A stretch of 64,000 nucleotides of DNA from an uncultured Planctomycetia bacterium (GTDB lineage: Bacteria > Omnitrophota > Gorgyraeia > CAYWPX01): the NCBI GenBank assembly GCA_964460615.1, contig CAYWPX010000010.1:1252-65251 (forward strand), given 5' to 3'. Below are positions 1 through 13,186 of the stretch, one piece after another. The notes under the pieces were generated by a model. It did not search any database. It was not told the origin of the DNA and saw nothing but the letters and a program-made list of their open reading frames with translations. Each line of letters begins with the position of its first letter. Position 1 is the stretch's first letter. The position numbers and the translations under genes were made by a program.

Positions 1-3000
1 GCACTGTGAAATCAGACCAATTGATTTTGGCTTTTGAAAGAATATTCAGATCCGACCAATTAATCCCGGCTATCGTCAGGGCTTCAAAATCTTCCCAATT
101 TATACCGGTAGTCGAAATTGTATTAATGTTAGCCCAATTGATTCCTGCGGTAGTCATTACATTAAAATCATCCCAGTTAATACCGGATTCGGATATTGTC
201 TTTAATCCTGACCAGTTAACCTTGGCCTCTGTCATGGTAGTAAGGTCGGACCAATTGATATTGGCTTTACTAAGAACCTCTAAATCGCTCCAATTAATTT
301 TCTTTAATGACAGAGCGTTTATATCAGACCAATTGATGTTCGCGGTTGACATCGCATTCAGATCAGCCCAGTTGATATTTATATTTGACAAAATAGTTAA
401 ATCGGACCAATTTATATCGGCAGTAGTCAAAACATTCAGATCTGACCAGTTTATCCCGGATTCAGATATTAAAAGTATATCATCCCAGTTTATCCCTAAT
501 GTTGTCATTGACATAAGATCGGTCCAATTTATGCCTTTAGTGCTCAATACCTCTATATCATCCCAGTTGATACCCGCCTCAGTCATTGTAGTCAGGTTAG
601 ACCAGTTAATACCGGCTGTGGACAGGTTTGCTATATCATCCCAATTAATTTCTGCCTCTGTCATTGTAGTAAAATCTGACCAGTTTATGCCGGCTTCAGA
701 AATAGCAGTAATATCATCCCAGTTAACTCCGGCTCCAGTAAGGAAGTTAAGATCTGCCCAGTTAATACCTTTTGTAGATATGACTTCTATATCATCCCAA
801 TTGATACCGGCTTCGGTCATGGTATTTAGATTAGCCCAGTTTACACTTGCCATGGTCATTGTTGTAAGGTCAGACCAATTAATATTTGCTTCAGTTAAAA
901 CCGTAAAATCAGACCAATTTACATTGGCATTAGATAAAATGGTCAGATCCCCCCAATTGATTTTGGCTCCGGATAAAGAAGTAATATCTAACCAGTTGAT
1001 ATTGGCCTCGGAAAGAGCGACCAGATCATCCCAATTAACATTTGCTTTGGTTAATACCGTCAGATCCGCCCAGTTTATTTTGGCTTTGGAAAGAGTGGTC
1101 AGATCAGACCAATTAATTCCAGCCTCAGTAAGAGTTTCGAAATTTGCCCAGTTAATTTTGGCTTTTGAAAGAGTGGAAAAATCGGTCCAATTAATATTGG
1201 CTTTTGTAAGAGTATTAAAATCTGCCCAGTTGATTTTGGCTTTACTTAGAACATCCAGATCGTCCCAGTTGACGCCAGCTGTTGTCATTGAGCTTAGATT
1301 CTCCCAGTTGATGCCTTTACTGGCCATGGCATCTATATCCGTCCAATTAATCCCGGCAATAGACATTCGGGAAATATCGTCCCAGTTGATCCCGGCTGTC
1401 GCCATAACATCGAGGCCGGTCCAATTTACATTAGCATCGCTCATTACAGCTATATCGTCCCAATTCACTCCGGCATTGGTAAGGCTGGCAAGATTATCCC
1501 AATTTATAGTCTCACTCCAGTCGACACCGGCTCCTGTCATATAGGCAAGGTCTGACCAATTGACTCCGACTATGGACATCTCTTTTATGTCGTTCCAATT
1601 TATCCCGACATCGGTGAGAACCGCTATATCATCCCAGTTAATACCGGCTCTCGACATCCTGAATATATCATCCCAGTTAACGCCCAATGCGGCAAGGCTT
1701 GAAACATCATCCCAGTTGACATTTGAGGCGGCCATTTTTTCTATATCATCCCAATTGATCCCCTGGATAGATAGGCGCCTCATATCGTCCCAGTTAACGC
1801 CAACATTTGCCATTTCAGCAACATCTGACCAATTAACCCCTGCTTTACTTAAGCTTTCAATATTAGTCCAATTGACCGAACCTATTGTTGTTGACAACCA
1901 TAATTGCCTGCCTGCTATGCCCTCCAATTCTTCAAATATGGATCCCTGACCCATAGTAGGCGTGCCGATAGCGGTAAGCACCTGACCCATTTTGGTATAT
2001 AAGGATTCTGCCTCGTTAGCACCAACAGCAGTTTTAACAGCATTGATATCGGACCAATTAATAGTGTCAGTTTTTGATTTAATAGAGGTTACATCTGACC
2101 AATTGATGGTTGTTGTACTGCTTTTTATTGCGGAGACGTCCGACCAATTTATGGTGTCGGTTTTAGCTTTAATTAAAGTGGATAGATATGTAGCAATGGA
2201 AACAACCGCAGAGGTCTCATAAGTAATCCCGCCATGTGTAATAGTAATATTATTAGCCAAAATATCATGATCAAGTGTAGCTGTCGGATGCGGTGAAGCT
2301 GTGCCGCTAATACTAGTATCACCTTCTGCGCCTGGAGCAAGTTCGCCACTATCTTCCATAGGAGCTCCACCAGGCCCCATACCAACATAAGTAATAGTCC
2401 ACGTATCACCCGCATTTAAAGGCACAGGAACTCCATTACTTTCAAGCCATATTCTATACAGAATATCTTGATCGCTTTCCATAGTAAATGTTGATTTTAA
2501 CTCAATCTTACCGGCAGGGCCGACTTTTACATAGGTATTATAAATAGCATAAGCCCTTGTTGCTTCTACATAAGCTGTATATTCAGCGGTAGGATCGGGA
2601 GGAGTCCAGGTGCCTGTAAATGTATTATTAACCCAATCAGAACTTAATAATATATTATCCTCACCTATTGTAATAGAGCCATAAGGGCCTGCTTCATCGG
2701 GTATAAAAGTAAGTTTTCTGCCGTTATATTCCAACCACACTGTTACATCATAACGATTATTAGCTTTGTCCCAGCTAAATACTGACTTAACCTCGATACC
2801 TGAGGATTGAGGAACAATACGGACATAAATAGCATGATAATACTCCTCATATCCGGCTGTTATTGCAGCAGTATATTCGGAAGCTGGGTCGGGGGGAACC
2901 CAATAACCTGAAAATGTTGTTTCAGTTTGAGCCCATGTTATAGATGCAGGACTGCCATCTATGGAAATTGATGGTTCTTGGTAACCTCCTTGCAAGGTAA

Positions 3001-4321
3001 GCATTCTTCCATTAGTTTCAAACCAAATTGTTATATCATAACGGTCCAGATTATACGGAGACTCCCGCCCTTGTACACCATTTTTCCAGGTAAATATGGC
3101 TTTAAGCTGGATAGTAGGAGCTTGGGAAACATTGTAAACAAAATGGCCTGTATATGTTTTTCCTGAAGAAGCGACCGTAATCGTAACATCGGCATGATAA
3201 TCTGTTCTGGAATCCGACGGGATCCATCCGGAAATACCAAAAATATTATTTATCGGGTCGCCAAAAGCCACTGCTCCAAACGAAGCTTCAGAAGAATTAT
3301 CTAATTTTTTGATCTCAACAGCACACGTGTCACTTGCTGTAAGAGTCTTTATAACTCCTTTTTCTAAAAGAAAGGCCTGTATTTGAAAAGACTCTGATTG
3401 AGAATCCCATAAAATATTTGAAGCCACCTTTATTTCAGCAAGTAAGGCCGCAACATCAAACCGGAATTTCCCTTGATAACTTTTCCCGGTTGAAGCAACG
3501 ATTATGGTAATTGTAGCATCATAATAAACATTTCTATCAGAAGGATTCCAGCTGGAGTATGTAAAAATACCGCCTGTAGGATCACCAAAATTAGCGTCAA
3601 GAAGGACGACTTCGCTTGTATTGTCCGGTTTTAGGATTGCACAGCTCGTAACATAATCACTTGCTGTAAGACTTGTTACAACCGAGCCATTTTTGGATAG
3701 ATAGGTGGTTATTACAAACCTATCTGTGGAGGGATTATATCTAATGTATGCCTCAACATTCATATCAGAAGATAAAATATCAAAAGCACTCGATGTAGCA
3801 CTTGTGAGGCCCGAAGCTGTTGCGCTCAAGGAGTATAATTCCCCCGCTTTATCTATATTTAAACCTTTTCCGGTAAAATCAGCTACACCCGCGACTGCCG
3901 ACATGGAGGTAGTACCGCCGAGCGCTCCGCCTCCGGGGTTATTATTAATGGAAAGGGTGACGGTATCGGTGGCATTCAAGACAGTATTGCCGTTTGCATC
4001 AACAATAGTTACAATAGGCTGGGGGCTAAAAGCCTCTGTGGCGTTTGTAGTTTTGGGAGAGGTAGAAAATGAAAGAGCGGACTTAGTGGTATAGCCAAGG
4101 GTTGCTGAGCTTGAATTAGTTGAAACATTGTAACCACTATATGAACCGCCGTGATACATATCGGTGGAAAGCTCAACATAAGAATAGCCGTCATAACTGC
4201 CTCCGGTATAGATAGCGGCGTATGAAAATGCTGTAAAAGAAAATATTAAAAGACTGGATAAAATAAGGCCTGATAATATCCCTTTTAATAAAAAGCTTAT
4301 ATTTTTCTTTTTATTTTTCAT
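1..4321 (-). CDS. Giant secreted repeat protein, partial. Start ATG at 4321..4319; the C-terminus runs off the window start. Layout: signal peptide, ~700-aa N-terminal region with internally duplicated modules, then >=50 tandem 13-aa repeats with consensus x-A-G-[IV]-N-W-[SDN]-D-[LI]-x-x-[LM]-[ST].
   Basis: Hand reverse-complement translation from ATG 4321 reads MKNKKKNISFLLKGILSGLILSSLLIFSFTAFSYA... without a stop down to position 1. A 39-nt periodicity (gaccaatt...) runs from nt ~1 to ~2170. None of the other listed ORFs reaches 4321, consistent with an open frame leaving the window. The + strand ORFs 6..1544, 1560..1949 and 1992..2222 carry the antisense SDQLIP 13-mer and are shadows. Confidence 0.8.
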   Translation of the reverse strand, partial: MKNKKKNISFLLKGILSGLILSSLLIFSFTAFSYAAIYTGGSYDGYSYVELSTDMYHGGSYSGYNVSTNSSSATLGYTTKSALSFSTSPKTTNATEAFSPQPIVTIVDANGNTVLNATDTVTLSINNNPGGGALGGTTSMSAVAGVADFTGKGLNIDKAGELYSLSATASGLTSATSSAFDILSSDMNVEAYIRYNPSTDRFVITTYLSKNGSVVTSLTASDYVTSCAILKPDNTSEVVLLDANFGDPTGGIFTYSSWNPSDRNVYYDATITIIVASTGKSYQGKFRFDVAALLAEIKVASNILWDSQSESFQIQAFLLEKGVIKTLTASDTCAVEIKKLDNSSEASFGAVAFGDPINNIFGISGWIPSDSRTDYHADVTITVASSGKTYTGHFVYNVSQAPTIQLKAIFTWKNGVQGRESPYNLDRYDITIWFETNGRMLTLQGGYQEPSISIDGSPASITWAQTETTFSGYWVPPDPASEYTAAITAGYEEYYHAIYVRIVPQSSGIEVKSVFSWDKANNRYDVTVWLEYNGRKLTFIPDEAGPYGSITIGEDNILLSSDWVNNTFTGTWTPPDPTAEYTAYVEATRAYAIYNTYVKVGPAGKIELKSTFTMESDQDILYRIWLESNGVPVPLNAGDTWTITYVGMGPGGAPMEDSGELAPGAEGDTSISGTASPHPTATLDHDILANNITITHGGITYETSAVVSIATYLSTLIKAKTDTINWSDVSAIKSSTTTINWSDVTSIKSKTDTINWSDINAVKTAVGANEAESLYTKMGQVLTAIGTPTMGQGSIFEELEGIAGRQLWLSTTIGSVNWTNIESLSKAGVNWSDVAEMANVGVNWDDMRRLSIQGINWDDIEKMAASNVNWDDVSSLAALGVNWDDIFRMSRAGINWDDIAVLTDVGINWNDIKEMSIVGVNWSDLAYMTGAGVDWSETINWDNLASLTNAGVNWDDIAVMSDANVNWTGLDVMATAGINWDDISRMSIAGINWTDIDAMASKGINWENLSSMTTAGVNWDDLDVLSKAKINWADFNTLTKANINWTDFSTLSKAKINWANFETLTEAGINWSDLTTLSKAKINWADLTVLTKANVNWDDLVALSEANINWLDITSLSGAKINWGDLTILSNANVNWSDFTVLTEANINWSDLTTMTMASVNWANLNTMTEAGINWDDIEVISTKGINWADLNFLTGAGVNWDDITAISEAGINWSDFTTMTEAEINWDDIANLSTAGINWSNLTTMTEAGINWDDIEVLSTKGINWTDLMSMTTLGINWDDILLISESGINWSDLNVLTTADINWSDLTILSNININWADLNAMSTANINWSDINALSLKKINWSDLEVLSKANINWSDLTTMTEAKVNWSGLKTISESGINWDDFNVMTTAGINWANINTISTTGINWEDFEALTIAGINWSDLNILSKAKINWSDFTV

Positions 4322-4330
4322 TAAGATTTA

Positions 4331-4376
4331 TTAGCTCATAGTTCATGGCTCATGGCTCATAGCTCATAGTAACTCC
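4331..4376. repeat. Short dispersed leader motif TTAGCTCATAG(TT)CATGGCTCATGG / CATGGCTCATAGTAA in the 5' leader of the giant gene. Related copies lie at 17011-17063 (macB leader) and inverted at 4843-4868.
   Basis: Direct sequence comparison of the three loci; each is immediately upstream of a minus-strand start codon. Confidence 0.5.
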
Positions 4377-4383
4377 TAAAAAA

Positions 4384-4820
4384 CTACGATACAGAGCTTT
4401 TTATAGACTTAATCAAACTTGAAAGCATTTTCCCTATCTCGTTACCCGATTCTTTAAATTCATCTAACTGTAAATCGCTTATCCAACCTTTTTTATTGAA
4501 TATAACTAACAACGTTACTAATTCAAATAGCGAACCTCTTGCTATATATAAATATTGAATAAATTCTTTTTTGGAATATCTACCCTTTCCCTCTGCAATT
4601 CAAAGAATTGCGAGGACTTTAGTCCCGGAAATGCTTTGCATTTCTCGGGGCCCTCTGCAATATTTAAAGCTATAGAAGCGGCAGAAGATTCAAGTTGCTC
4701 AACAAGTCTAAAATGCTTTCTATCGGTTGTTATCTGATCTGTTAAATCTATAACTCTTTTAGAGAAATCAACTGCCTTTTTCCAAACCTCTAAATCTTCA
4801 AAGCTATATTTAACTGTCAT
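4384..4820 (-). pseudogene. Four-helix-bundle protein (23S rRNA intervening-sequence protein family), disrupted by an insertion that shifts the frame.
   Basis: The N-terminal part (listed ORF 4542..4820) reads ...FEDLEVWKKAVDFSKRVIDLTDQI...ALNIAEG. The family C-terminus KGRYSKKEFIQYLYIARGSLFELVTLLVIFNKKGWISDLQLDEFKESGNEIGKMLSSLIKSIKSS continues in another frame down to a stop at 4384. Removing the 62-nt insert restores NIAEGKGRYSKKEF in frame. Confidence 0.65.
4600..4661. mobile_element. 62-bp insertion inside the four-helix-bundle gene. It is flanked by an 11-bp direct repeat CCCTCTGCAAT (4589-4599 and 4651-4661) and contains two small hairpins (gtcccggaaatgc/gcatttctcgggg and ggact/agtcc).
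   Basis: The direct repeat was read directly. Insert length 62 is not a multiple of 3 and explains the frame change between the N- and C-terminal halves of the host gene. Confidence 0.5.
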
Positions 4821-4871: not shown

Positions 4872-5147
4872 TTACGGGGCGGTCCCCGTAAGTTGCCAAT
4901 TACGCAATCTTTGTTTAAGAAATCGCTTGCCAACTCCGGATTTTAAATATTTCTCTCTTTGTACGGCATCATTAATATTTAAACATGCTTCATAATAAAT
5001 CAATATTAACGGCCTTCTATATCTAGTTGAATATACTTTGCCATCATTATGTTCCTCTAAGCGATTTCTTAAATCATTTGTTCGGCCAGTATAATATTTA
5101 AAATCCTTTGAGCTTAATAATACGTATGTATAGTACATTGTCTTCAT
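4872..5147 (-). CDS. GIY-YIG nuclease family protein
   Basis: YTYVLLSSKDFKYYTGRTNDLRNRLEEHNDG motif. The 3' end overlaps a perfect hairpin cttacgggg-cggt-ccccgtaag. Confidence 0.85.
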   Translation of the reverse strand: MKTMYYTYVLLSSKDFKYYTGRTNDLRNRLEEHNDGKVYSTRYRRPLILIYYEACLNINDAVQREKYLKSGVGKRFLKQRLRNWQLTGTAP

Positions 5148-5153
5148 AGCAAC

Positions 5154-6791
5154 TTACGGGGCAGTCCTTGCGCATCTGCCGCCCAGCATGCTGGCGCGGT
5201 CCGGGTCTCCGCTACTTATAGCGGCCCATCTGTTTGAAACTCTGCAATCTCCAGATATAGTATCATAAGCGCCTCCCCGAAGGCCTGTTCCAACCCAATC
5301 AGTCACTCCCCGAGCTACAGTAGAATCTATGCCCGGCCAGTCAGTATTGGTAGCATTCCCTTCATAGCTGGTAGTAGTGGTTAACACCCCATCCCCATGC
5401 GTGCCTAAAAAAACTCTTCCTTCAGTCATTCCTAAGGTAACAATAAGTTCATATAAATTACCGGTTAAATCCAGGTTACCATAATAACCTGCACCCGCAT
5501 TTTCTCTAGTAGATGTACTATCAGCATATGATCCGGTTCTATAAGGCCCATCGGGAGAACAACTATCAATATTTGCATTGCCCTGGTTGGGGATTTCAGT
5601 AACTGTGCCGCTATTTGTAAGAGAAGTTGTAGCTGTTTCAAAATTTGTACTGCCCCAGCTATATTCTTCAAGTATAGGGTAATTTGGACCACGACAGACC
5701 TTTTCGTATTCAAGCTCTGTGTAGGGCCTAAGGGCTGCCCAATCAGTATATGCTGCAACATCAGGCCATGATAAATAACCACACCCTATGCACTGACCAT
5801 CAGTTGTTTCATTAAATGTCTTATCATGATCGTAATCACAACCAAATGTGATCACTCCAGCGCCAGGAGTAGTAGGGACGCGGATACCATTGCGGTAATT
5901 ATCAGCTGAAGCAATATTTGCCGCAGTAGCTGTATTTGCCAGCGCATAATAATCTCCAGTTTGAGAAGCTGTCCTCGTATTTTGCTGAACACGAGTAAGG
6001 GTATTAAGAAAATCTTTGTACTGATCTTGAGATATCTCATATTTCATCAAATAAAAAGCACTGTACCCTTTAGGGAACGTTACCGGCAATGTCCTGGTGG
6101 TAGAATCATTAAAATCATCAATACTAAACATTCCTGTAGTATTATTATTTCCAAGGCTCCCGGCACCGCCCCCACCAAGAATCAGTTCATTTTCACTGAT
6201 TATTTGTTTAGGAACGCCTGTTGTGCCGTCTTCAAATTGACCAGCCAAGCTACCACCGGATTCGCCGTCACCTACATAAAAAGCCCCGGTTGGTATATAC
6301 ACCATCTCGATACCATAAATCCTGAATACAGTTAATGGACCGTTAGCGTTGGCATCAGTTACACTGCTTGCTCCATAATCCCAGACTATCTCTACGTTTG
6401 AAGTGCTTAAAGATCCTGTGCCTGCTGCAGACCTTTGGATAAAACAACCCTTCATATCGCTAGGTACTACTATTTCCAGGGCAGTACCGGAGGTACCTAT
6501 AGAAAAACCTGTGGGGTTGGTCCCCGAGCCATTAAGCGTACCATGGCTCCAGGTTGTTCCGCCGTCAGTTGAATATTTCAGAAACACCCACGCCGCGTCA
6601 TAATTGGTATCATCCCTCCAGGAATTGCTCCAGGAAATAGTAAATTTCAGATTTAGGGTGTCATTGGTCGTATCCTGTCCGGAAACGGTGAGGCTCGTTA
6701 TTGAAAGATAGTTGGCAAAACATATGCCTTTTGAAAATAATAAAATAAAAATAAATAATGAAAACAATATAAATATTTTTTTCATAAACAC
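5154..6791 (-). CDS. Secreted formylglycine-generating-enzyme (FGE/SUMF1) domain protein with an N-terminal Asp-box (STDGGTTW) region
   Basis: Signal peptide MFMKKIFILFSLFIFILLFS. FGE-fold motifs IEMVYIPTGAFYVGDG, YLMKYEISQDQYKDFLN, LSWPDVAAYTDWAALRPYTELEYEKVCRG, GNLYELIV, RGG. Ends GGRCARTAP. Confidence 0.75.
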   Translation of the reverse strand: MFMKKIFILFSLFIFILLFSKGICFANYLSITSLTVSGQDTTNDTLNLKFTISWSNSWRDDTNYDAAWVFLKYSTDGGTTWSHGTLNGSGTNPTGFSIGTSGTALEIVVPSDMKGCFIQRSAAGTGSLSTSNVEIVWDYGASSVTDANANGPLTVFRIYGIEMVYIPTGAFYVGDGESGGSLAGQFEDGTTGVPKQIISENELILGGGGAGSLGNNNTTGMFSIDDFNDSTTRTLPVTFPKGYSAFYLMKYEISQDQYKDFLNTLTRVQQNTRTASQTGDYYALANTATAANIASADNYRNGIRVPTTPGAGVITFGCDYDHDKTFNETTDGQCIGCGYLSWPDVAAYTDWAALRPYTELEYEKVCRGPNYPILEEYSWGSTNFETATTSLTNSGTVTEIPNQGNANIDSCSPDGPYRTGSYADSTSTRENAGAGYYGNLDLTGNLYELIVTLGMTEGRVFLGTHGDGVLTTTTSYEGNATNTDWPGIDSTVARGVTDWVGTGLRGGAYDTISGDCRVSNRWAAISSGDPDRASMLGGRCARTAP

Positions 6792-6868
6792 TCTCTATTA
6801 ATGATCACTTACAACAGTTATAATTTCCCTCTTATACATTCACTATCAAAAATTAAACCTAAAATCTA

Positions 6869-8446
6869 TTAGGGCTCAGTCCTCGCACAACGGCCGCCAG
6901 TTTCCTGTGTGCGGGTTGATGCGCCACTTGAAGCATAGTTTCTATTAGAAATAGAAGCAATCGGGGCAGTAGGGATCCAACTCCCTCCGCGCTTGCCGGA
7001 CCCCGCTGCGCCGGTAACTCCTCTTGCTTGCGTGCCGTCAATGCCGGGCCAATCGGTGTTTGTAGCGTTTCCTTCATAGCTTGCGGTAGTAGTTAAAACA
7101 CCGTCTCCGTGTGTCCCCTGAAAAGCCCTCCCGAAACTATTACCAACTGAAACGACATATTCATGTAAATTGCCGGCCAATTCCATATTTCCATAATAGC
7201 CAGCTCCTGAAGTTACTCTTGTCGAGGTGCTTGTTGCAAATATACCTACTCTTAAAGGGCCATATCCCCCATCACCGCCGCTTAAAGGCATTGCGGGAGA
7301 ATAATTACAATTAGCGCCGGAAGTTGTTATGGTCTCTGTGCCGGATTCGCTTCCTGAAATAGTGGCAGCTGAAGTATATGAATTAGTCCCCCAAGCATAT
7401 TCACCATATACTGAAGCATTAGTCCCGCGGCATGCCTTTTCATATTCAAGCTCGGTCATAGGCCTAAGGGCGGCCCAATCAGCATAAGCACACACATCCA
7501 TCCAGCTAAGATAACTGCAAGCTCTGTAAGGCCTGGTTGTTGTGGCGCTACCGCTACCTGTCCAGCTAACGGTATTTCGGCTACTAACAGCATCTGAGTT
7601 TTTACCCGTAGCATCGGTAATATCTCTTTGAAGCCTTTGGGCAGCAGTAAGAGTATTAAAAAAATCCACCCATTGGCCTTCTGTGATCTCATGCTTCATA
7701 AGATAGAAATTTTTTGTACTTGACCCGTTCACAAGACCATTTGGAAAACTATTATTACCGGTAATGCCAAAACCCAGCATCCAACCCTGTATATATATGC
7801 TGTGGTCTGTATCAATATCGTCATTGGCACTTGCATCACAGCTAATGTAATTAGAACCTATCATTGGTTCAGCTTGCATAGCCGTATTATCCGTAGCAGA
7901 ATGAAAAGCGTATGTAGATTCATTTGTGCTATTGCCGTCCCCAAGGTAATACCCCCCCGGAGGTATATATACCATTTCTATTGCGAATACCTTAACGATC
8001 GCAGTACTTGAAGCGCTAAGGCCGTCTCCTTGCCAGTCCCAGCAAAGCCTGACATCATAGGCAGTAACTGTACCGGGAAATTCCCCAGTAGCTGCTCTTT
8101 GGAGAAAAGCACCCTTTTTATCACTGGGGACAATTATATCAACATCCATAGATGTCCCGCCGGAAGTATCGCTAGGGTTGGTGCCTGCGGTTTTCAAAGT
8201 AGCATGGTTCCAGGTAGTACCGCTATCGGTAGAATATTTGACAAAGAGCCACACAGCATCATAATTTATCTGGTTTCTCCAGCCGTTGTACCATCTGACA
8301 TCCATATTAATATCTATCGTACCGTTGGCTGCATTGGGATTGGTAAGATACACATCTATAACGGTTAGATTATTAGCAAAAGAAAGCTTTGCAATAAAAC
8401 CAGTGAAAAATAATAATATCAAATATATTTTAATTGATCTTTTCAT
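6869..8446 (-). CDS. Secreted FGE/SUMF1 domain protein; tandem paralog of 5154..6791
   Basis: Same architecture and motifs (YSTDSGTTW, IEMVYIPPGGYYLGDG, YLMKHEITEGQWVDFFN, LSWMDVCAYADWAALRPMTELEYEKACRG, GNLHEYVV). Ends GGRCARTEP. Confidence 0.75.
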   Translation of the reverse strand: MKRSIKIYLILLFFTGFIAKLSFANNLTVIDVYLTNPNAANGTIDINMDVRWYNGWRNQINYDAVWLFVKYSTDSGTTWNHATLKTAGTNPSDTSGGTSMDVDIIVPSDKKGAFLQRAATGEFPGTVTAYDVRLCWDWQGDGLSASSTAIVKVFAIEMVYIPPGGYYLGDGNSTNESTYAFHSATDNTAMQAEPMIGSNYISCDASANDDIDTDHSIYIQGWMLGFGITGNNSFPNGLVNGSSTKNFYLMKHEITEGQWVDFFNTLTAAQRLQRDITDATGKNSDAVSSRNTVSWTGSGSATTTRPYRACSYLSWMDVCAYADWAALRPMTELEYEKACRGTNASVYGEYAWGTNSYTSAATISGSESGTETITTSGANCNYSPAMPLSGGDGGYGPLRVGIFATSTSTRVTSGAGYYGNMELAGNLHEYVVSVGNSFGRAFQGTHGDGVLTTTASYEGNATNTDWPGIDGTQARGVTGAAGSGKRGGSWIPTAPIASISNRNYASSGASTRTQETGGRCARTEP

Positions 8447-8615: not shown

Positions 8616-9785
8616 CTAAGGACTGGTAATCTCCTTCGCTTTCAGCTTAAGTACGTTATCCGCAATACGTTCTTTAACAATATTTGCGTATTTTGAATTT
8701 GGGTTTTTATCAATAAAGTCCTTGTAATACTTAATCGCTTTGTCGAATTTTTGTAAATAATAATCGTAGAGTACCGCCAGATTATAAGAAATATCCGCAT
8801 CACCGGGGAGGTACTTCTGGGCAAATTCATATTCATATGCAGCTTTTTTGTACTCACCTTTTTTCAGGTAGCTATTACCCAGATTAAAATGCAGCTTACC
8901 ATTCTCCTCTTTCATGCGCTCTGCCTCGGGGATGGCTTTTCTCATATCCTCTTCAAGGGATTTAAGCTTATCATCGGATTCTTTTTTTAGGGCAATGAGT
9001 CTTTTTTCAGAGTCATCTTTATAGGACTTGAATTTTGAATCCAGGTCTTTCCATTTATTAAAATAAACATCTTTGCCTCTTTCGGCTTCAAGGATCCTTG
9101 CTGTACTTTCCAGTAATTTTTTTTCAACACTCAAATCTTCAACTTCCTTAGTCAGTTTTTCTTTTTCACTTTTGTAATTTGCATTCACAGCCTCAAGCTG
9201 AGTCCTGTAATTATCGGCCCTTTCGCTTAGCATGCGAATTCTCGCAGTTGTAACGCCTTCCCTGGCTGAAATTTTGCTTAACTCCTCTTTAAGCTTTTTG
9301 ATCTCGTCTTTTAGCTTGGCATTATCATCAAGGGTTTCTCTAAGAGAATCCTCGAGCGTAGGAGTTCTTAAAACTATTGGGCTTTCAACGGAAGCAGTTG
9401 CTCCTGATTGTGAAGAAGATGCATCTTTTGCTGGGGTTAATTCTTTGGATAGGGTTTCATTTGCCTTACCGGGTATGTCTCTTTTTATTTGTAATAAGCC
9501 CGGGCTAGTAGAAGATCCCGGCTTAGATTCTTGAGGCTTTGGCGGTTCGGCGGCATTGGGTACAGTATTAGCAGTGATGCTATTTGAAACAGGTGTGGTA
9601 ATTTTAATTGCACTTGCATCGGGTGAAGCGGTTTTATTGGGAATGTCTAAAATGGCTTTTTCAGACACAGTTCCGGTGGTACTCTGGGAATAACAAGTAA
9701 TAACACAAGAAAAGATGAGGGCAAAAAATACAAAAACAAAACAAACCGATTTTTTAACAAATCCCCCGGCATTATTTTTTGCCAT
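8616..9785 (-). CDS. Membrane-anchored coiled-coil / TPR-repeat protein, possibly a secretin- or pilus-associated pilotin-like protein
   Basis: N-terminal hydrophobic segment, low-complexity S/T/P linker, long heptad-rich region, C-terminal TPR (NLGNSYLKKGEYKKAAYEYEFAQKYLPGDADISYNLAVLY...). Lies downstream of the secretin. Confidence 0.6.
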   Translation of the reverse strand: MAKNNAGGFVKKSVCFVFVFFALIFSCVITCYSQSTTGTVSEKAILDIPNKTASPDASAIKITTPVSNSITANTVPNAAEPPKPQESKPGSSTSPGLLQIKRDIPGKANETLSKELTPAKDASSSQSGATASVESPIVLRTPTLEDSLRETLDDNAKLKDEIKKLKEELSKISAREGVTTARIRMLSERADNYRTQLEAVNANYKSEKEKLTKEVEDLSVEKKLLESTARILEAERGKDVYFNKWKDLDSKFKSYKDDSEKRLIALKKESDDKLKSLEEDMRKAIPEAERMKEENGKLHFNLGNSYLKKGEYKKAAYEYEFAQKYLPGDADISYNLAVLYDYYLQKFDKAIKYYKDFIDKNPNSKYANIVKERIADNVLKLKAKEITSP

Positions 9786-9863
9786 CTATTTTGCCTCCTT
9801 GTGTGTCTATAACTTATTGTAATTAAATCTATATTGTTTATTTACTTTCTTTTTTTATTTTAT

Positions 9864-10066
9864 GGATTCCCGACAAGTAACCTCGGGAATGACAAATAGC
9901 ATATGGCGTTTCTGGATTTCCTTAGGAATTTTATGATTTAAAATTCCAAGGACCAGGGCCCGCCTAAACCACGCGGGAATGACAAATGCTTAATTTACTT
10001 TTTTTCTTCCAACCTAAACCCACTGGATTCCCGACAAGTACACTCGGGAATGACAGATAACATATG
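9864..10066. repeat. Three adjacent GC-rich palindromic elements (GGATTCCCG[A/C]C-loop-G[A/C]GGGAATGACAAAT followed by an AT-rich tail). The middle one embeds the GGAATTTTATGATTTAAAATTCC hairpin typical of the MITE-like family.
   Basis: Read directly; inverted repeats and shared 40-nt tail ATGACAAATGCTTAATTTA(C/T)TTTTTTTCTTCCAACCTAAACC. Confidence 0.6.
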
Positions 10067-10119
10067 GAGCTTAGGCCCCGCCTGAGCAAAAATAACAGCT
10101 CCTTACTCACAACTCATAA

Positions 10120-11697
10120 CTAATATTCTTTGTCCGGCTGAACGGTCTCTTTCAGGTTATATTTATCGCTCTCATAATTTTCATTTCCCTCTACGATTTT
10201 AGGGGAAAGAAGTATCACTATCTCGGTCTGTTTTTTATTGCTTGTTATACTGCGAAATAATTGCCCGACCCCCGGTATATCCATAAGTATCGGTATGCCT
10301 TGTTTATCCACTACAGACTCATCTTTTCTTAACCCGCCTATGACAATAGTCTGCCCATCCTGAACTATAACACTCGTTTCAACCAAAGTGGTATTGATAA
10401 GAGGGACTTCGGAGCCCTGGGGCGTAGTAAGAGTCGAAACCTGCGAGGATATCTCAGGTTTGATAGACATGGTAATATATCCGTCATCATTTATCTGCGG
10501 AGTAACCAGGAACTGAACTCCGACATCAATATAATGTATCTCCTCATTCACTCTCTGGCTTTCCCCTGTCCCGATAGTTGTGGTAGTAACATATGCCAAT
10601 TTATCCCCTATATGGATCTTAGCTTCTTTATTGTTTAAAATCATAATGCTGGGATTGGCAAGGACCTTTGTGTCCTCAACCTCTTTTAACATTCTTATGT
10701 CAGCGGCAAAATTGTCACTTGAAAAATTACCGACTGCAATGTTACCAAATGTCGATGCGGCGGCACTTGCTATCGGGAATGTTCCTGAAAATGTGAGCCC
10801 ATGCATCAAATACTTGCCGCCCTTTTTAAAAACACTGTCCCAGTTGATGCCGGTAGCAAGCTGAGGGTTCAGAACCAGCTGGATGATCCTTACCTGGATC
10901 AGGACTGCTTTCGTCTTTTTATCCAAAGCCTTTATTATTTCCTCAACTTCTTTAAGCCTGTCCGGAAAAGCCCTTATAACAAGCTGGTTACTTCTTGCAT
11001 CCGCCTGAACAGAACCTACGGATTTATTATCAAGTTTTTCTTTAAGCTTATTAGCGACATCATCTGGGCTGGCGTATCTAAGAGTAAAAACCTTTGTCTC
11101 GAGAGGGTGATCCATCTGTTTAATGGCATCCTCCATCTTTTTTAATTTTTCGTCAGTATCAATAAGGACCACGGAACCGGTATCCTCATCGATAACAACT
11201 TTTCCCACGTCGCTTTTGATGTTCTTTAGCGCTTCCAAAATATATGCCGGCTTGGCGTAATTAAGATATACTATCTTCATATGAGTTTCATCGCTGAATT
11301 TTTTGCCATAAATAGCCTGAAATTCCGCCTCTGTCATTATGTGAATGATATTATCGCCCAAAATTTTATAACCCAAGCCGTTTGAGATGGAAATAATATC
11401 CAAAGAATCTTTTATTGAAACGTTTTTGAGATACAGGGTAACCCTCCCTTGAATATTTTTGCTTATAGAAATATTGAAATCGCCTTTTACCGCCAAAAAT
11501 TTGTAGACGTCCACAACATCCATATCCCTGAGATCAAGGTCTATCTTTCTATCGAGTTTTGCCTTAAGCGCTTCTGAAGCAACATCCTCAAACGCCGAAA
11601 CTTCACTTATTGATAAATCGCCGGTTTTAGGGTACAAAAAGAAAGCCAATAATAATAAAAAGAAGTATATAAAAACTTTTTTAAAAGAGATCGTCAT
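10120..11697 (-). CDS. Secretin (GspD/PilQ family outer-membrane channel)
   Basis: C-terminal secretin domain motifs LANPSIMILNNKEAKIHIGDKLAYVTT..., VGVQFLVTPQINDDGYITMSIKPEISS, TTLVETSVIVQDGQTIVIGGL, IPILMDIPGVGQLFRS. Confidence 0.85.
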   Translation of the reverse strand: MTISFKKVFIYFFLLLLAFFLYPKTGDLSISEVSAFEDVASEALKAKLDRKIDLDLRDMDVVDVYKFLAVKGDFNISISKNIQGRVTLYLKNVSIKDSLDIISISNGLGYKILGDNIIHIMTEAEFQAIYGKKFSDETHMKIVYLNYAKPAYILEALKNIKSDVGKVVIDEDTGSVVLIDTDEKLKKMEDAIKQMDHPLETKVFTLRYASPDDVANKLKEKLDNKSVGSVQADARSNQLVIRAFPDRLKEVEEIIKALDKKTKAVLIQVRIIQLVLNPQLATGINWDSVFKKGGKYLMHGLTFSGTFPIASAAASTFGNIAVGNFSSDNFAADIRMLKEVEDTKVLANPSIMILNNKEAKIHIGDKLAYVTTTTIGTGESQRVNEEIHYIDVGVQFLVTPQINDDGYITMSIKPEISSQVSTLTTPQGSEVPLINTTLVETSVIVQDGQTIVIGGLRKDESVVDKQGIPILMDIPGVGQLFRSITSNKKQTEIVILLSPKIVEGNENYESDKYNLKETVQPDKEY

Positions 11698-12353
11698 CTT
11701 AATTCAATCTCCTCGCCCATATACTCTAAAATCACTTTGTCTTTATTTATGGCTTTAACTATACACGACAATATTTTGTCCCCTTCCAAAAGAAAATAGG
11801 TAACTTTAGTTTTTCCATCCTCAATCATAGCATATCTTTGTTTAGGGTCTTCTGCCCAAGAAATACCAGCTACTCGCAAATCTTTGGTTGCTTCGGCAAT
11901 CTGTGTAATACCAAATTGCTGCGCTGCAACTTTAGGCTGCTCTTCAGCTGGATTAAAAATATTTCTATTTACAAGCGTATCTATATAAAAAGTGTATTCT
12001 TTAAGCGGCAGTGATATGCCCTTATCGATAGCTTTTTTAATTTCTGCTAAATTGCTCTTAAAATCCGGGACATTATTAAGCCTCTCTATCCCGCTTATAA
12101 GTATCCCAAAATATATCAAAAGTAGTAGCCCGATAACTCCCCATAGTATCCTATTTATGCTCGTGAGAGTTGAAGCGCCTCCACCATGCGCCTGTATAAA
12201 ACCCAGCTTCTCACCAAATATTTCAAAAGCTTTTTTAACCGGCTCTATAGCGTCCAGCTGGGGATTCTTAGAAGGAATCTTCTTCGATATATCCGCCTTC
12301 CCCTCTATGGCTTTTAAAAGCTCTTTTTCGGCTGTATTGTGACTTGGTTCCAT
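11694..12353 (-). CDS. Single-TM periplasmic protein (GspB/C- or PilP-like position between ExeA and secretin); hypothetical
   Basis: One predicted TM (WGVIGLLLLIYFGILISGI). Overlaps both neighbours by a few nt (operon coupling). No recognisable catalytic motif. Confidence 0.5.
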   Translation of the reverse strand: MEPSHNTAEKELLKAIEGKADISKKIPSKNPQLDAIEPVKKAFEIFGEKLGFIQAHGGGASTLTSINRILWGVIGLLLLIYFGILISGIERLNNVPDFKSNLAEIKKAIDKGISLPLKEYTFYIDTLVNRNIFNPAEEQPKVAAQQFGITQIAEATKDLRVAGISWAEDPKQRYAMIEDGKTKVTYFLLEGDKILSCIVKAINKDKVILEYMGEEIELR

Positions 12354-13186
12354 TGACTATCAGATTCCTTTTCTATAACCTCAATAACCATCTCTTTATC
12401 TACCATCATTTTGGTCTTGCTCATAGCTAGTTCTCTAAGGCACTTGTGGCAGAGACGGATTATGCCCCTCGGGTAACCTTTTGTCCTGTAATAAACTTCT
12501 CTTATCGCTTCTTCAGCAAAAATCGGGGTTGTATTTTTATTACCGGCCTGACGCATCCTAAACTCCATCATGTCTTTTGCCTCTTCAAATCCCAGTGGAT
12601 TTAAAGTAAATTTAAAATCGATCCTGTCATAAAAATTTGATATAGTTACAATCTTCGAATACAACTCCAGCTGTCCCAATAAAACAAGCTGGATAAGCTT
12701 AAATTCGTTGGTCTCATAATTCAGTAAAATCCTAAGCGATTCCAACGTCTCAAAAGACAATTTTTGCGCTTCATCAATCAGTAATATTACGGTCTTATTC
12801 TCAGAAAGATTCTTGTGGAGTAGGAATTTCTCAAAAGCGTCTCTCATCTCTGAAGTTGAATGGCTAGCCATATCAGCCGGAAACGGGACCTGAAAATTCC
12901 TGATAAGAGAAAACAAAAATTCTTTTTCGTTCTCAAACGTAGGATTCAAGATCATATGAAAAATAAATTCTTCTCTATTATGGAGTTCTTGGATTAGTTT
13001 TCTGGAGAGCGTGGTCTTCCCGACACCTATATCGCCGAGAATTACACTTAAGCCCCTTTTTAGGCGGAGTTCGATAAGAATATTAGTAAGAGCTAAATCG
13101 TATTCTCTGGAAAGGTACAGAAAATCCGGATCCGGATTTGTCGAAAAAGGTTCTTTTTCGAAACCGAGTATTTTGTAATAGCTCAT
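12314..13186 (-). CDS. ExeA/GspA-like AAA ATPase (secretion pathway protein A family)
   Basis: Walker A ILGDIGVGKTTL, Walker B ILLIDEAQKL, typical ExeA length and N-terminus. Confidence 0.8.
   Translation of the reverse strand: MSYYKILGFEKEPFSTNPDPDFLYLSREYDLALTNILIELRLKRGLSVILGDIGVGKTTLSRKLIQELHNREEFIFHMILNPTFENEKEFLFSLIRNFQVPFPADMASHSTSEMRDAFEKFLLHKNLSENKTVILLIDEAQKLSFETLESLRILLNYETNEFKLIQLVLLGQLELYSKIVTISNFYDRIDFKFTLNPLGFEEAKDMMEFRMRQAGNKNTTPIFAEEAIREVYYRTKGYPRGIIRLCHKCLRELAMSKTKMMVDKEMVIEVIEKESDSQWNQVTIQPKKSF

Follow-up and report, generated by a model that had tools for sequence, protein, structure and literature searches.

The window analysed here is a stretch of 64,000 nt from contig CAYWPX010000010.1 (assembly GCA_964460615.1) of a Candidatus Omnitrophota bacterium. 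It begins inside a gene read on the minus strand (1-4321), of which 1440 codons are visible from the ATG at 4319-4321 to the window edge and of which the first 2 kb or so, in window coordinates, display a 39-nt periodicity. Upstream of it, also on the minus strand, lie two paralogous FGE-sulfatase-like genes (5154-6791 and 6869-8446; together 5154-8446), both with signal peptides and matching Pfam PF03781 at 30.9 and 57.1 bits. They are preceded, over 8616-13186, by genes for a TPR protein (8616-9785), a secretin (10120-11697), a GspC-like protein (11694-12353) and an AAA_22 ATPase (12314-13186), identified with Pfam and NCBIfam models. The products of all the neighbouring genes except the AAA ATPase carry a signal peptide or a TM segment. 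Promoter, terminator and Rfam scans of the region between 4250 and 5250 gave nothing above chance.

Organisation of the repeat protein

Translation of the minus strand from position 4321 encountered no stop codon up to the window edge, whereas such a stop would have refuted the original prediction. The protein starts with a signal peptide (4217-4321, residues 1-35), made of MKNKKK, a hydrophobic core (hydrophobic segment at residues 7-25) and SYA|A; it was read from the translation, the cleavage site is inferred, and the same layout occurs in about 30 relatives. Directly after it come two Y-x-G-G motifs (4133-4216; AIYTGGSYDG...MYHGGSYSG), which are conserved at that place across relatives. 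The next segment is a putative bacterial Ig-like domain of the Big_1/invasin type (3764-4084, about residues 80-186): its own Pfam hit is below threshold (Glyco_hydro2_C5, E 0.048), but it is 36-57% identical to the repeated Ig-like unit of Gemmatimonadales and Myxococcota proteins that carry PF02369, PF18565 and PF09134. Five beta-rich modules of about 100 aa each follow (2201-3763, about residues 187-707). They were recognized by internal similarity in the translation, their boundaries are approximate and they have no Pfam or PDB match. Most relatives have one such module, and the first INW unit, at residue ~725 here, is at ~250-350 in relatives.

The repeated part begins with three 15-residue KTDTINWSD[VI] units (2030-2164, residues 720-764), also found in relatives. 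A linker (1886-2029, residues 765-812) carries SLYTKMGQV and SIFEELEGI motifs; related T[LV]FG+I motifs recur in the C-terminal region of relatives. The array proper (2-1885, residues 813-1440) consists of 49 back-to-back units in which the N-W dipeptides are at exact 13-residue spacing: 10 units, then one conserved 6-residue 'half step' at residues 930-941, then 39 units, the last of which is cut by the window edge. The consensus derived from the 48 full units is [TEK]-A-G-[IV]-N-W-[DS]-D-[LIF]-x-x-[LM]-[ST], with W in 48/48 and N in 47/48, in agreement with the original prediction. The latter's count of at least 50 units is right only if the three 15-mers are included (52 NW-type units). The array is acidic (85 D+E against 27 K+R, pI 4.05) and devoid of Cys and Pro. 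The half step belongs to a 'landmark' double-W unit, LAYMTGAGVDWSETINWDNLASLT (1478-1549, residues 925-948), which conforms to the motif AYMTGxGVNWxETINWDNLAxL. A W-W spacing of 6 was found in 25 of 28 relatives that carry an N-terminus, 22 of these clearly carry the landmark motif, and it usually follows 9-10 units.

At the DNA level, the match fraction at lag 39 over positions 1-1885 was 0.561, against 0.276 ± 0.011 (maximum 0.303) in 31 control windows of the same size (z = 25.7); lag 78 was marginally higher (0.576). Tandem Repeats Finder detected only pieces (periods 39 and 78, 68-79% matches) because the copies are diverged. In the minus frame, entropy by codon position was third > first > second (1.49, 1.05 and 0.71 bits) and conserved residues use synonymous codons freely (Asn: 24 AAT and 22 AAC; Gly: all four codons). 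The periodicity is therefore held by selection on the minus-strand protein. The three plus-strand ORFs found between 6 and 2222 (6-1544, 1560-1949 and 1992-2222) are antisense shadows, not genes, their product being the reverse-complement reading (SDQLI) of INW. The observation made in the original prediction, a long array of 39-nt repeats coding on the minus strand, is confirmed.

Relatives of the repeat and conservation of the locus

The repeat is not covered by any named family. Neither Pfam nor NCBIfam gave a match above cut-off, and no LRR, LRV or DUF285 model appeared among the matches up to E = 1; the period of 13 also differs from the 20-29 residues of LRR (LxxLxLxxN), the 24 of LRV and the about 26 of DUF285. 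Pentapeptide_4, whose period is 5 (A(D/N)LXX), scored 15 bits for a cut-off of 38. RTX was also rejected on period and score. The best Pfam match was that of the lysostaphin N-terminal 13-residue repeats (Lysostaphin_N, PF25533), at 23.1 bits here and 31.9 bits for the relative P0181, i.e. far below the cut-off of 60 bits; the consensus is unrelated and the match comes from periodicity only. Sequence and profile searches of the PDB gave nothing, the best hit being a 13-residue-period myc-tag artefact.

A search with the whole protein was swamped by the Ig-like domain, which matches Gemmatimonadales and Myxococcota proteins and says nothing about the repeat. Homologues reach E 1e-120, and 60 word-index hits were nearly all 'hypothetical proteins' of Candidatus Omnitrophota. 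Only 426 of 1.84 billion representative proteins matched a profile of the repeat. A hand-made degenerate DNA pattern revealed 97 loci with at least 8 units in species-representative genomes, nearly all of them Omnitrophota-type MAGs, and gave only two single matches in viral contigs. The repeat is thus rare and almost confined to this phylum. The consensus found in the window also emerged from 5,510 unique units in 96 loci.

The gene sits at a fixed place in a conserved context. The FGE-like, TPR or secretin genes lie upstream in 34 of 35 informative genome loci; the FGE-like pair is upstream in 24 of these 35, and the order of the TPR-to-AAA_22 module is conserved in two related loci, L002 and L003, and in 25-26 of the 35. 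Downstream, a 435-aa membrane protein was found in 23 of 25 genome loci and 40 of 40 metagenome loci, and F-type ATPase alpha and beta subunits in 22 of 25 and 40 of 40; a PilB/GspE ATPase also belongs to this cluster. This corresponds to the 'symbiotic' F-type ATPase/T4aP locus reported in every Omnitrophota class and compared with the Mycoplasma mobile gliding ATPase (Seymour et al. 2023, PMC10066038). The repeat gene lies exactly between the secretin module and the F-type ATPase operon, although for the window itself the downstream genes are inferred from relatives. Text searches of that paper on adhesins, tandem repeats, secretion systems and pili returned no passage about a repeat protein in this locus. 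The ATPase subunits of L002 pass the cut-offs for ordinary atpA and atpD, but not those of the gliding-type models MMOB1660/1670, so that a motility-type role for that ATPase is not shown here.

In relatives the ends stay conserved while copy number ranges from about 20 to more than 250 units, and protein length varies roughly 20-fold, from 868 aa to about 16,800 aa; relatives do reach at least 3,500 aa, and one reaches about 16,800 aa. The N-terminal heads vary: Ig-like here, Laminin_G_3 in another relative, P0183, and Ig_Rha78A_N in P0181. The qualification of 'giant', as used in the original prediction, cannot be shown for this gene, of which 1440 aa are visible. Attempts to extend it failed to reach its 3' end: an exact 31-mer from the window start was found in neither the genome nor the metagenome contigs, a 91-aa neighbour had no record, and a 525-aa neighbour led only to an 8.8-kb Logan contig that stops before the gene.

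Predicted structure and possible roles

The original prediction proposed a solenoid or beta-helix surface protein of no recognized family, and this interpretation is only partly supported. That the gene is on the minus strand, that the plus-strand ORFs are shadows, that the repeat has no family name and that the product is a secreted or surface protein (as judged from its signal peptide and the conserved secretion locus) are right. The beta-helix is not supported; 'solenoid', in the loose sense of a stacked repeat rod, remains plausible but its packing is not resolved. Two AlphaFold runs, on 16 units with a slid alignment and on 10 units with a gapless in-register alignment, placed, according to DSSP, one 8-9-residue alpha-helix and a 4-5-residue loop in every unit, but with low confidence (pLDDT 53-54, pTM 0.27-0.31), and hence without establishing any tertiary packing. 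Independently, the strongest DCA and MI couplings among the 5,510 unique units were 8-11 (i+3) and 10-1' (i+4), followed by 9-13, 11-1', 8-2' (i+7), 7-10 and 5-8. An acidic swap links positions 8 and 11, S8/D11 being enriched 9.5-fold and N8/E11 7.4-fold while D8/D11 is depleted to 0.12-fold. Two features fit less well: Gly is fairly common at position 10 (18%), as are Val/Thr at position 11, inside the proposed helix, and no long-range, off-register couplings that would define how units pack were found.

The reading that we favour, with a probability of about 0.55, is that the periodic DNA encodes a Sec-exported, modular fibre protein. Each 13-residue unit would most likely form one N-capped alpha-helix (from W6 to position 1 of the next unit), with Asn5 as N-cap and Asp8 as N3 capping residue, followed by an x-A-G-[IV]-N connector; I/V4, W6, L/I/F9 and L/M12 would form the hydrophobic seam between neighbouring units. 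The units would stack into an acidic rod whose length is set by copy number. The rod would act as an extender or tether between the variable N-terminal binding modules and a conserved C-terminal base which, in relatives, is a helical region ending in VVKxW[FY]E and which is inferred to lie beyond the window. Given its place in the locus, the protein would probably work with that envelope machine in attachment to host or prey cells. The analysis establishes the gene, the repeat and its family, the taxonomic range, the synteny and the length variation, and it supports, without proving, the helix-loop unit; rod packing, extracellular location, the identity of the anchored end and the attachment role are inferences from sequence and context.

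A more speculative extension, which we regard as unlikely although the evidence does not rule it out, is that the array is a new single-helix micro-repeat fold building filaments tens of nanometres long at about 50 units and possibly around a micrometre at about 1,200 units. These would be the so far unrecognized extracellular working part (a 'line' or 'leg') of the secretin/T4aP plus F-type ATPase apparatus, anchored by the adjacent type-I membrane protein and used to capture or hold host or prey cells, a functional analogue of the surface legs driven by the F1-like ATPase in M. mobile gliding.

Among the alternatives, the one that survives best, while remaining doubtful, is that the repeats are the working part rather than a spacer, either as a multivalent surface binding cell-wall or capsule glycans through exposed Trp plus Asn and Asp, or as a Ca2+-binding array, related in principle to dockerin/EF-hand half-sites, that stiffens on secretion. 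The presence of one invariant Trp, Asn and Asp per 13 residues, the acidity of the array and the requirement for an acidic group at position 8 or 11 are in favour of it, and dockerin and TSP3 Ca-binding repeats are known in other Omnitrophota giant proteins. The motif G-x-[IV]-N-x-x-D-[LIF]-x-x-[LM], the end of a loop followed by a short helix, is shared with dockerins (PF00404), and the only stretch that hhalign aligned to a dockerin validated against 1OHZ_B is INWGDLTILS against INSTDLTMLK, i.e. the end of the Ca loop plus the exiting helix. However, the probability was 0.2% (E 0.31), the DxDxDG first half of the loop is absent, the period is 13 rather than 22-24 residues and Pfam showed no Dockerin or EF-hand hit: this is a resemblance of motif, and homology is not supported. 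Moreover, Trp is inferred to sit on the same helical face as the conserved hydrophobic residues, which fits a core position better than an exposed one. This reading does not exclude the extender role.

A beta-solenoid, the feasible form of the original prediction, is less likely. In it, two units would make one 26-residue coil of a two-sided beta-helix or beta-roll, with ladders of N5, G3, D8 and S/T13 and a core of I4, W6, L9 and L12. Conserved Asn, Gly, Asp and Ser/Thr are typical ladder residues of beta-solenoids, the AlphaFold models are of low confidence, and many arrays show a 2-unit alternation: identity at variable positions is higher at lag 2 than at lag 1 in 48 of 74 loci, extremely so in loci L014, L010 and L074, and in the window lag 78 at least equals lag 39. 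Against it are the helices in every unit in both AlphaFold runs, the dominance of i+3, i+4 and i+7 over i+2 couplings, the 6-9-12 hydrophobic spacing, which fits a helix face, and the lack of any match to a beta-solenoid family or structure; the 2-unit and 6-unit periods can equally come from block duplication or helical hairpins. Still less likely is an internal part of the envelope machine (a periplasmic scaffold, a sheath or a polymerizing filament subunit): the invariant position inside the secretin/ATPase/pilus locus, next to the conserved type-I membrane protein, would suit it, but the variation in length is hard to reconcile with a fixed periplasmic distance and the N-terminal modules are variable and adhesin-like. 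Finally, a non-coding satellite or assembly artefact, with the plus-strand ORFs (512, 129 and 76 aa) as the real genes, is refuted by the open minus frame, its excess of third-position variation and the protein-level homologues in about 100 genomes with conserved head, tail and synteny.

The modular logic is that of the long extender adhesins of Gram-negative bacteria (LapA, MpIBP and SiiE type), in which a stalk of tandem bacterial Ig-like repeats of variable copy number separates ligand-binding modules from a cell-anchoring end; the present sequence is likewise acidic, extracellular in style and poor in Cys. What differs is the repeat, a 13-residue predicted helix-loop unit instead of a ~100-aa beta-sandwich, and the export, which appears to use a Sec signal peptide next to a secretin instead of a type I system with a C-terminal signal; no RTX repeats are present. 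Alpha-solenoid repeats (TPR, HEAT, TALE/BurrH and designed helical repeats) are also made of short helices joined by tight turns, as predicted here, but from units of 30-40 residues with 2-3 helices. A designed helical-repeat cage and TALE/BurrH were the only Foldseek hits of the low-confidence model against the PDB, and they are not significant (best E 0.036, TM 0.36).

Omnitrophota are uncultured, ultra-small bacteria thought to live as predators or parasites, and how they hold on to other cells is an open question. Published work has pointed to their type IV pilus/F-type ATPase loci and to giant proteins, but has left most of the sequence unannotated. Those giant proteins, the 'Archaeovorins' and the 'Dockerin-type' (West-Roberts et al. 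2023, bioRxiv 10.1101/2023.11.21.568195; 2026 preprint, 10.64898/2026.06.07.730766), are also very long ORFs that break short-read assemblies, lie beside type II/IV secretion or pilus genes and are proposed to act in prey or host attachment. They are defined, however, by a size of at least 30,000 aa and by many TM segments, SecA-DEAD domains, HEAT/TPR repeats, enzymes or dockerin/TSP3 repeats, whereas the INW proteins have a signal peptide, no internal TM segment and no Pfam repeat; no giant-protein domain or TM segment of these classes occurs in the 1440 visible residues. Text searches of these papers returned no passage describing a repeat of this kind, and a literature search for the motif found nothing relevant.

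These results define a repeat family that Pfam, NCBIfam and the PDB do not cover, and place it as an invariant gene inside the pilus/ATPase locus. This provides a concrete, testable candidate for the attachment structure, an unusually short repeat, predicted to be helical, for structural biology, and a marker for a gene otherwise mis-called as antisense ORFs or fragments. The arrays are also systematically truncated in short-read assemblies: in all 7 metagenome loci with 10 kb available upstream of the C-terminal domain, the array fills the whole 10 kb.

The minus-strand repeat gene and its product

On the minus strand, positions 1-4321 of the window translate into 1440 codons without a stop, in a frame starting at the ATG at 4319-4321. 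N-W dipeptides are found at an exact 13-residue spacing from residue 813 to the window edge: there are 10 units, then one conserved 6-residue half-step (GAGVDWSETINWD), then 39 more units. Three 15-residue KTDTINWSD[VI] units lie ahead of these, at residues 720-764. The 48 full units give the consensus [TEK]-A-G-[IV]-N-W-[DS]-D-[LIF]-x-x-[LM]-[ST], with W present in 48/48 and N in 47/48. At the DNA level, the match fraction at lag 39 is 0.561 versus 0.276 ± 0.011 in 31 control windows (z = 25.7); Tandem Repeats Finder detects only fragments of the array because the copies have diverged.

Variation among the units is greatest at the third codon positions of the minus frame (1.49, 1.05 and 0.71 bits for the third, first and second positions, respectively), and the conserved residues use synonymous codons freely. 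The periodicity is therefore maintained at the protein level, and the plus-strand ORFs 6-1544, 1560-1949 and 1992-2222 are antisense shadows. The original prediction of a 39-nt-periodic repeat gene on the minus strand thus held. The two findings that had been set beforehand as capable of overturning it were not obtained: there is no stop in the frame, and no HMM hit reaches a family threshold. Its interpretation was only partly supported since, as detailed below, the proposed beta-helix found no support.

From the N-terminus, the protein comprises a signal peptide (residues 1-35, cleavage site inferred), two YxGG motifs, a putative Ig-like domain (about residues 80-186) which is 36-57% identical to the repeated unit of large Ig-repeat proteins of Gemmatimonadales and Myxococcota, five beta-rich modules of about 100 aa (where most relatives have one), the 15-mers, a short linker and the 13-mer array. 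The array is 628 aa long and strongly acidic (85 D+E against 27 K+R, pI 4.05), and it contains no Cys and no Pro.

Distribution and length of the repeat family

A search with the array alone returned 60 proteins, nearly all from Candidatus Omnitrophota MAGs, all labelled 'hypothetical' and many of them partial. When a profile of ten in-register units was searched against 1.84 billion representative proteins, only 426 matches were found at E <= 1e-3, and 32 at E <= 1e-30. A degenerate DNA pattern (NWxD-9-NWxD-9-NW) found more than 118 stretches in species-representative genomes; 97 of the loci collected carry arrays of at least 8 units. Nearly all of these are labelled Candidatus Omnitrophota or, in third-party assemblies, 'uncultured Planctomycetales'. 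Many of the MAGs that carry the arrays and the same synteny bear such 'uncultured Planctomycetales/Planctomycetia bacterium' labels (loci L005, L007, L009 and others), which probably stand for Omnitrophota. Single matches in Arthrobacter and Streptomyces look like chance, and viral contigs gave two single matches.

The complete relatives add what the window lacks. After the last unit come 2-4 T[LV]FG+I motifs, a helical region of about 150 aa and a C-terminal VV[KT]xW[FYML]E. The half-step seen in the window is a conserved landmark, ...AYMTGxGVNWxETINWDNLAxL...: a W-W spacing of 6 occurs in 25 of 28 genes that carry an N-terminus, and 22 of these clearly carry the motif, usually after 9-10 units. 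The N-terminal heads differ between members (Laminin_G_3 in protein P0183, Ig_Rha78A_N in protein P0181). INW-like units also occur at an irregular spacing of 12-16 residues in other architectures (proteins P0143, P0146, P0163 and P0161), namely Peptidase_M26_N/Glug-domain proteins and a tail-fibre-like protein with 14-residue units, so that the unit looks like a portable module.

Length varies widely. Complete members run from 868 aa (33 units; locus L002) through 1,206 aa (locus L100) and 1,304 aa (locus L171, by ORF extent) to 2,809 aa (P0181). In locus L003, a 582-aa N-terminal ORF (P0130) is followed, with an overlap of 4 nt, by a 16,204-aa ORF; all of the 3,334 residues of the latter that were retrieved form 256 units without one irregular spacing. 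The two ORFs are separated by a run of four G where five would keep the frame (L003 ~11720-11750), which splits a gene of about 16,800 aa and may be a sequencing error or a homopolymer slip. Three 8-kb genome loci, one of them from a complete Omnitrophota chromosome, are filled from end to end with 205 units. Among the metagenome loci anchored on the C-terminal domain, 7 have the full 10 kb upstream, and in all 7 the ORF is open throughout and holds 223-253 units; most of the others are cut by a contig end. Short-read assemblies therefore under-report these arrays. As the contig of the window could not be extended, the 1440 codons do not give the full length of its gene.

Predicted structure of the 13-residue unit

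Two AlphaFold runs, made with different alignments, both gave one helix of 8-9 residues (W6 to position 1 of the next unit) plus a 4-5-residue loop in every unit. Confidence was low (pLDDT 52.9 and 54.2; pTM 0.31 and 0.27), so that the packing is not established. As an independent test, 7,141 units (5,510 unique) were collected from 96 loci. The family consensus is A2, G3 (81%), I/V4 (95%), N5 (98%), W6, D8 (79%), I/L/F/M/V9, L/M12 (90%) and S/T13 (90%), with Pro and Cys almost absent. Direct-coupling and mutual-information analyses of four-unit windows agree: the two dominant couplings, reproduced in each unit, are 8-11 (i+3) and 10-1' (i+4), about 10-12 SD above the mean, followed by 9-13, 11-1', 8-2' (i+7), 7-10 and 5-8. 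Positions 8 and 11 swap an acidic residue, S8/D11 being enriched 9.5-fold and N8/E11 7.4-fold, whereas D8/D11 is depleted to 0.12-fold.

This is the signature of an alpha-helix, in which Asn5 would be the N-cap and Asp8 the N3 residue, an assignment that we infer. Nothing supports the beta-helix of the original prediction: a 13-residue coil could not bury four large hydrophobic side chains, and the variant with a 26-residue coil has only a 2-unit alternation in its favour. Higher-order periods of 2, 3 and especially 6 units recur in independent arrays. The best lag is 6 units in 24 of 74 loci, the period in L003 (11746-21749) is 234 nt, or 6 units, and several arrays show strong 2-unit alternation (loci L095, L014 and L074 are among those with higher-order periods). 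This may reflect either superhelical geometry or block duplication.

Foldseek and PDB sequence searches found no relative of the unit. The best PDB profile hit, 6b5b_F, is a flagellin construct carrying tandem myc tags (EQKLISEEDLNEM), i.e. another 13-residue period and an artefact to bear in mind when searching with periodic profiles. The unit resembles the end of a dockerin or EF-hand loop plus its exiting helix, and hhalign aligns exactly that stretch to a validated dockerin, but at 0.2% probability only.

Genomic context and proposed role

In the window, the genes upstream of the repeat gene are all on the minus strand and are, in order, an AAA_22 ATPase, a GspC-like protein, a secretin, a TPR protein and two FGE-sulfatase-like paralogues. 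The two paralogues (window 5154-8446, minus strand; L002 6796-9991) have signal peptides and are conserved between the TPR/secretin genes and the repeat gene; they might modify the repeat protein or act as structural ring proteins in the manner of GldK/PorK. In L002 and on the contig of P0124, another relative, the repeat gene is followed by a 435-466-aa protein with a signal peptide and a C-terminal TM segment, a seven-gene F-type ATPase operon, a PilB/GspE-type ATPase with an MshEN domain, and GspF and a pseudopilin. By tblastn, one of the FGE-like, TPR or secretin genes lies upstream in 34 of 35 informative genome loci. The membrane protein lies downstream in 23/25 genome loci and 40/40 metagenome loci, and the ATPase alpha and beta subunits in 22/25 and 40/40. 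The conserved 435-aa membrane protein of L002 (12610-13917), which matches no Pfam or NCBIfam family and whose gene lies directly downstream of the repeat gene (40/40 metagenome loci), is a candidate anchor or partner.

This is the 'symbiotic' F-type ATPase/T4aP locus that Seymour et al. (PMC10066038) report in every Omnitrophota class and link to attachment and surface motility. Term searches of that paper returned no passage about the repeat protein, those of the two papers on Omnitrophota giant proteins returned other classes of giant protein and nothing matching this repeat, and a motif search of the literature found nothing. The L002 ATPase subunits pass the ordinary atpA and atpD cut-offs, not those of the Mycoplasma gliding models.

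The best-supported reading is that of a Sec-exported fibre, in which a copy-number-variable, acidic rod of helix-loop units separates variable N-terminal binding modules from a conserved C-terminal base. The protein is encoded as a fixed part of the secretin/pilus/ATPase apparatus and therefore probably serves attachment to host or prey cells. While the gene, its family, the taxonomic range, the synteny and the length variation are established by the analysis, and the helix-loop unit is supported by two independent lines of evidence, the rod geometry, the extracellular location, the anchoring end and the role in attachment are inferred. The less likely alternatives are a glycan- or Ca2+-binding array, a beta-solenoid with 26-residue coils and, last, an internal scaffold.

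The sequences are public but unnamed, and no curated family, structure or paper among those that could be searched covers the unit. Long repeat-stalk surface proteins are already known, as are giant Omnitrophota proteins encoded beside secretion loci. What is new is the repeat itself, its probable single-helix unit, its extreme copy numbers and its conserved place in the locus.

The rest of the window is ordinary chromosome, with efflux systems, a complex-I/Mbh-like cluster, an RND pump, a P-type ATPase and histidine kinases. Between the FGE-like gene and the repeat gene, a gap of ~830 bp is occupied by a 91-aa GIY-YIG nuclease ORF (4872-5147, minus strand) and a broken four-helix-bundle gene. 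In L002 and on the P0124 contig the FGE-like gene and the repeat gene abut, which suggests a local insertion of selfish elements. The broken gene, of the 23S-rRNA-IVP/four-helix-bundle type (4384-4820, minus strand), is split by a 62-nt insertion (insert at 4599-4650) made of a 52-nt unique sequence with two small hairpins plus a second copy of the 10-nt TTGCAGAGGG. Its removal restores ...NIAEGKGRYSKKEF... in frame; it looks like a miniature mobile insertion with a target-site duplication, and it is present once in the window. Finally, a heptanucleotide tandem repeat (TAGCTCA x 5.4; 4332-4369) ends 11 nt upstream of the start codon of the repeat gene and could be a slippage-prone element affecting expression.
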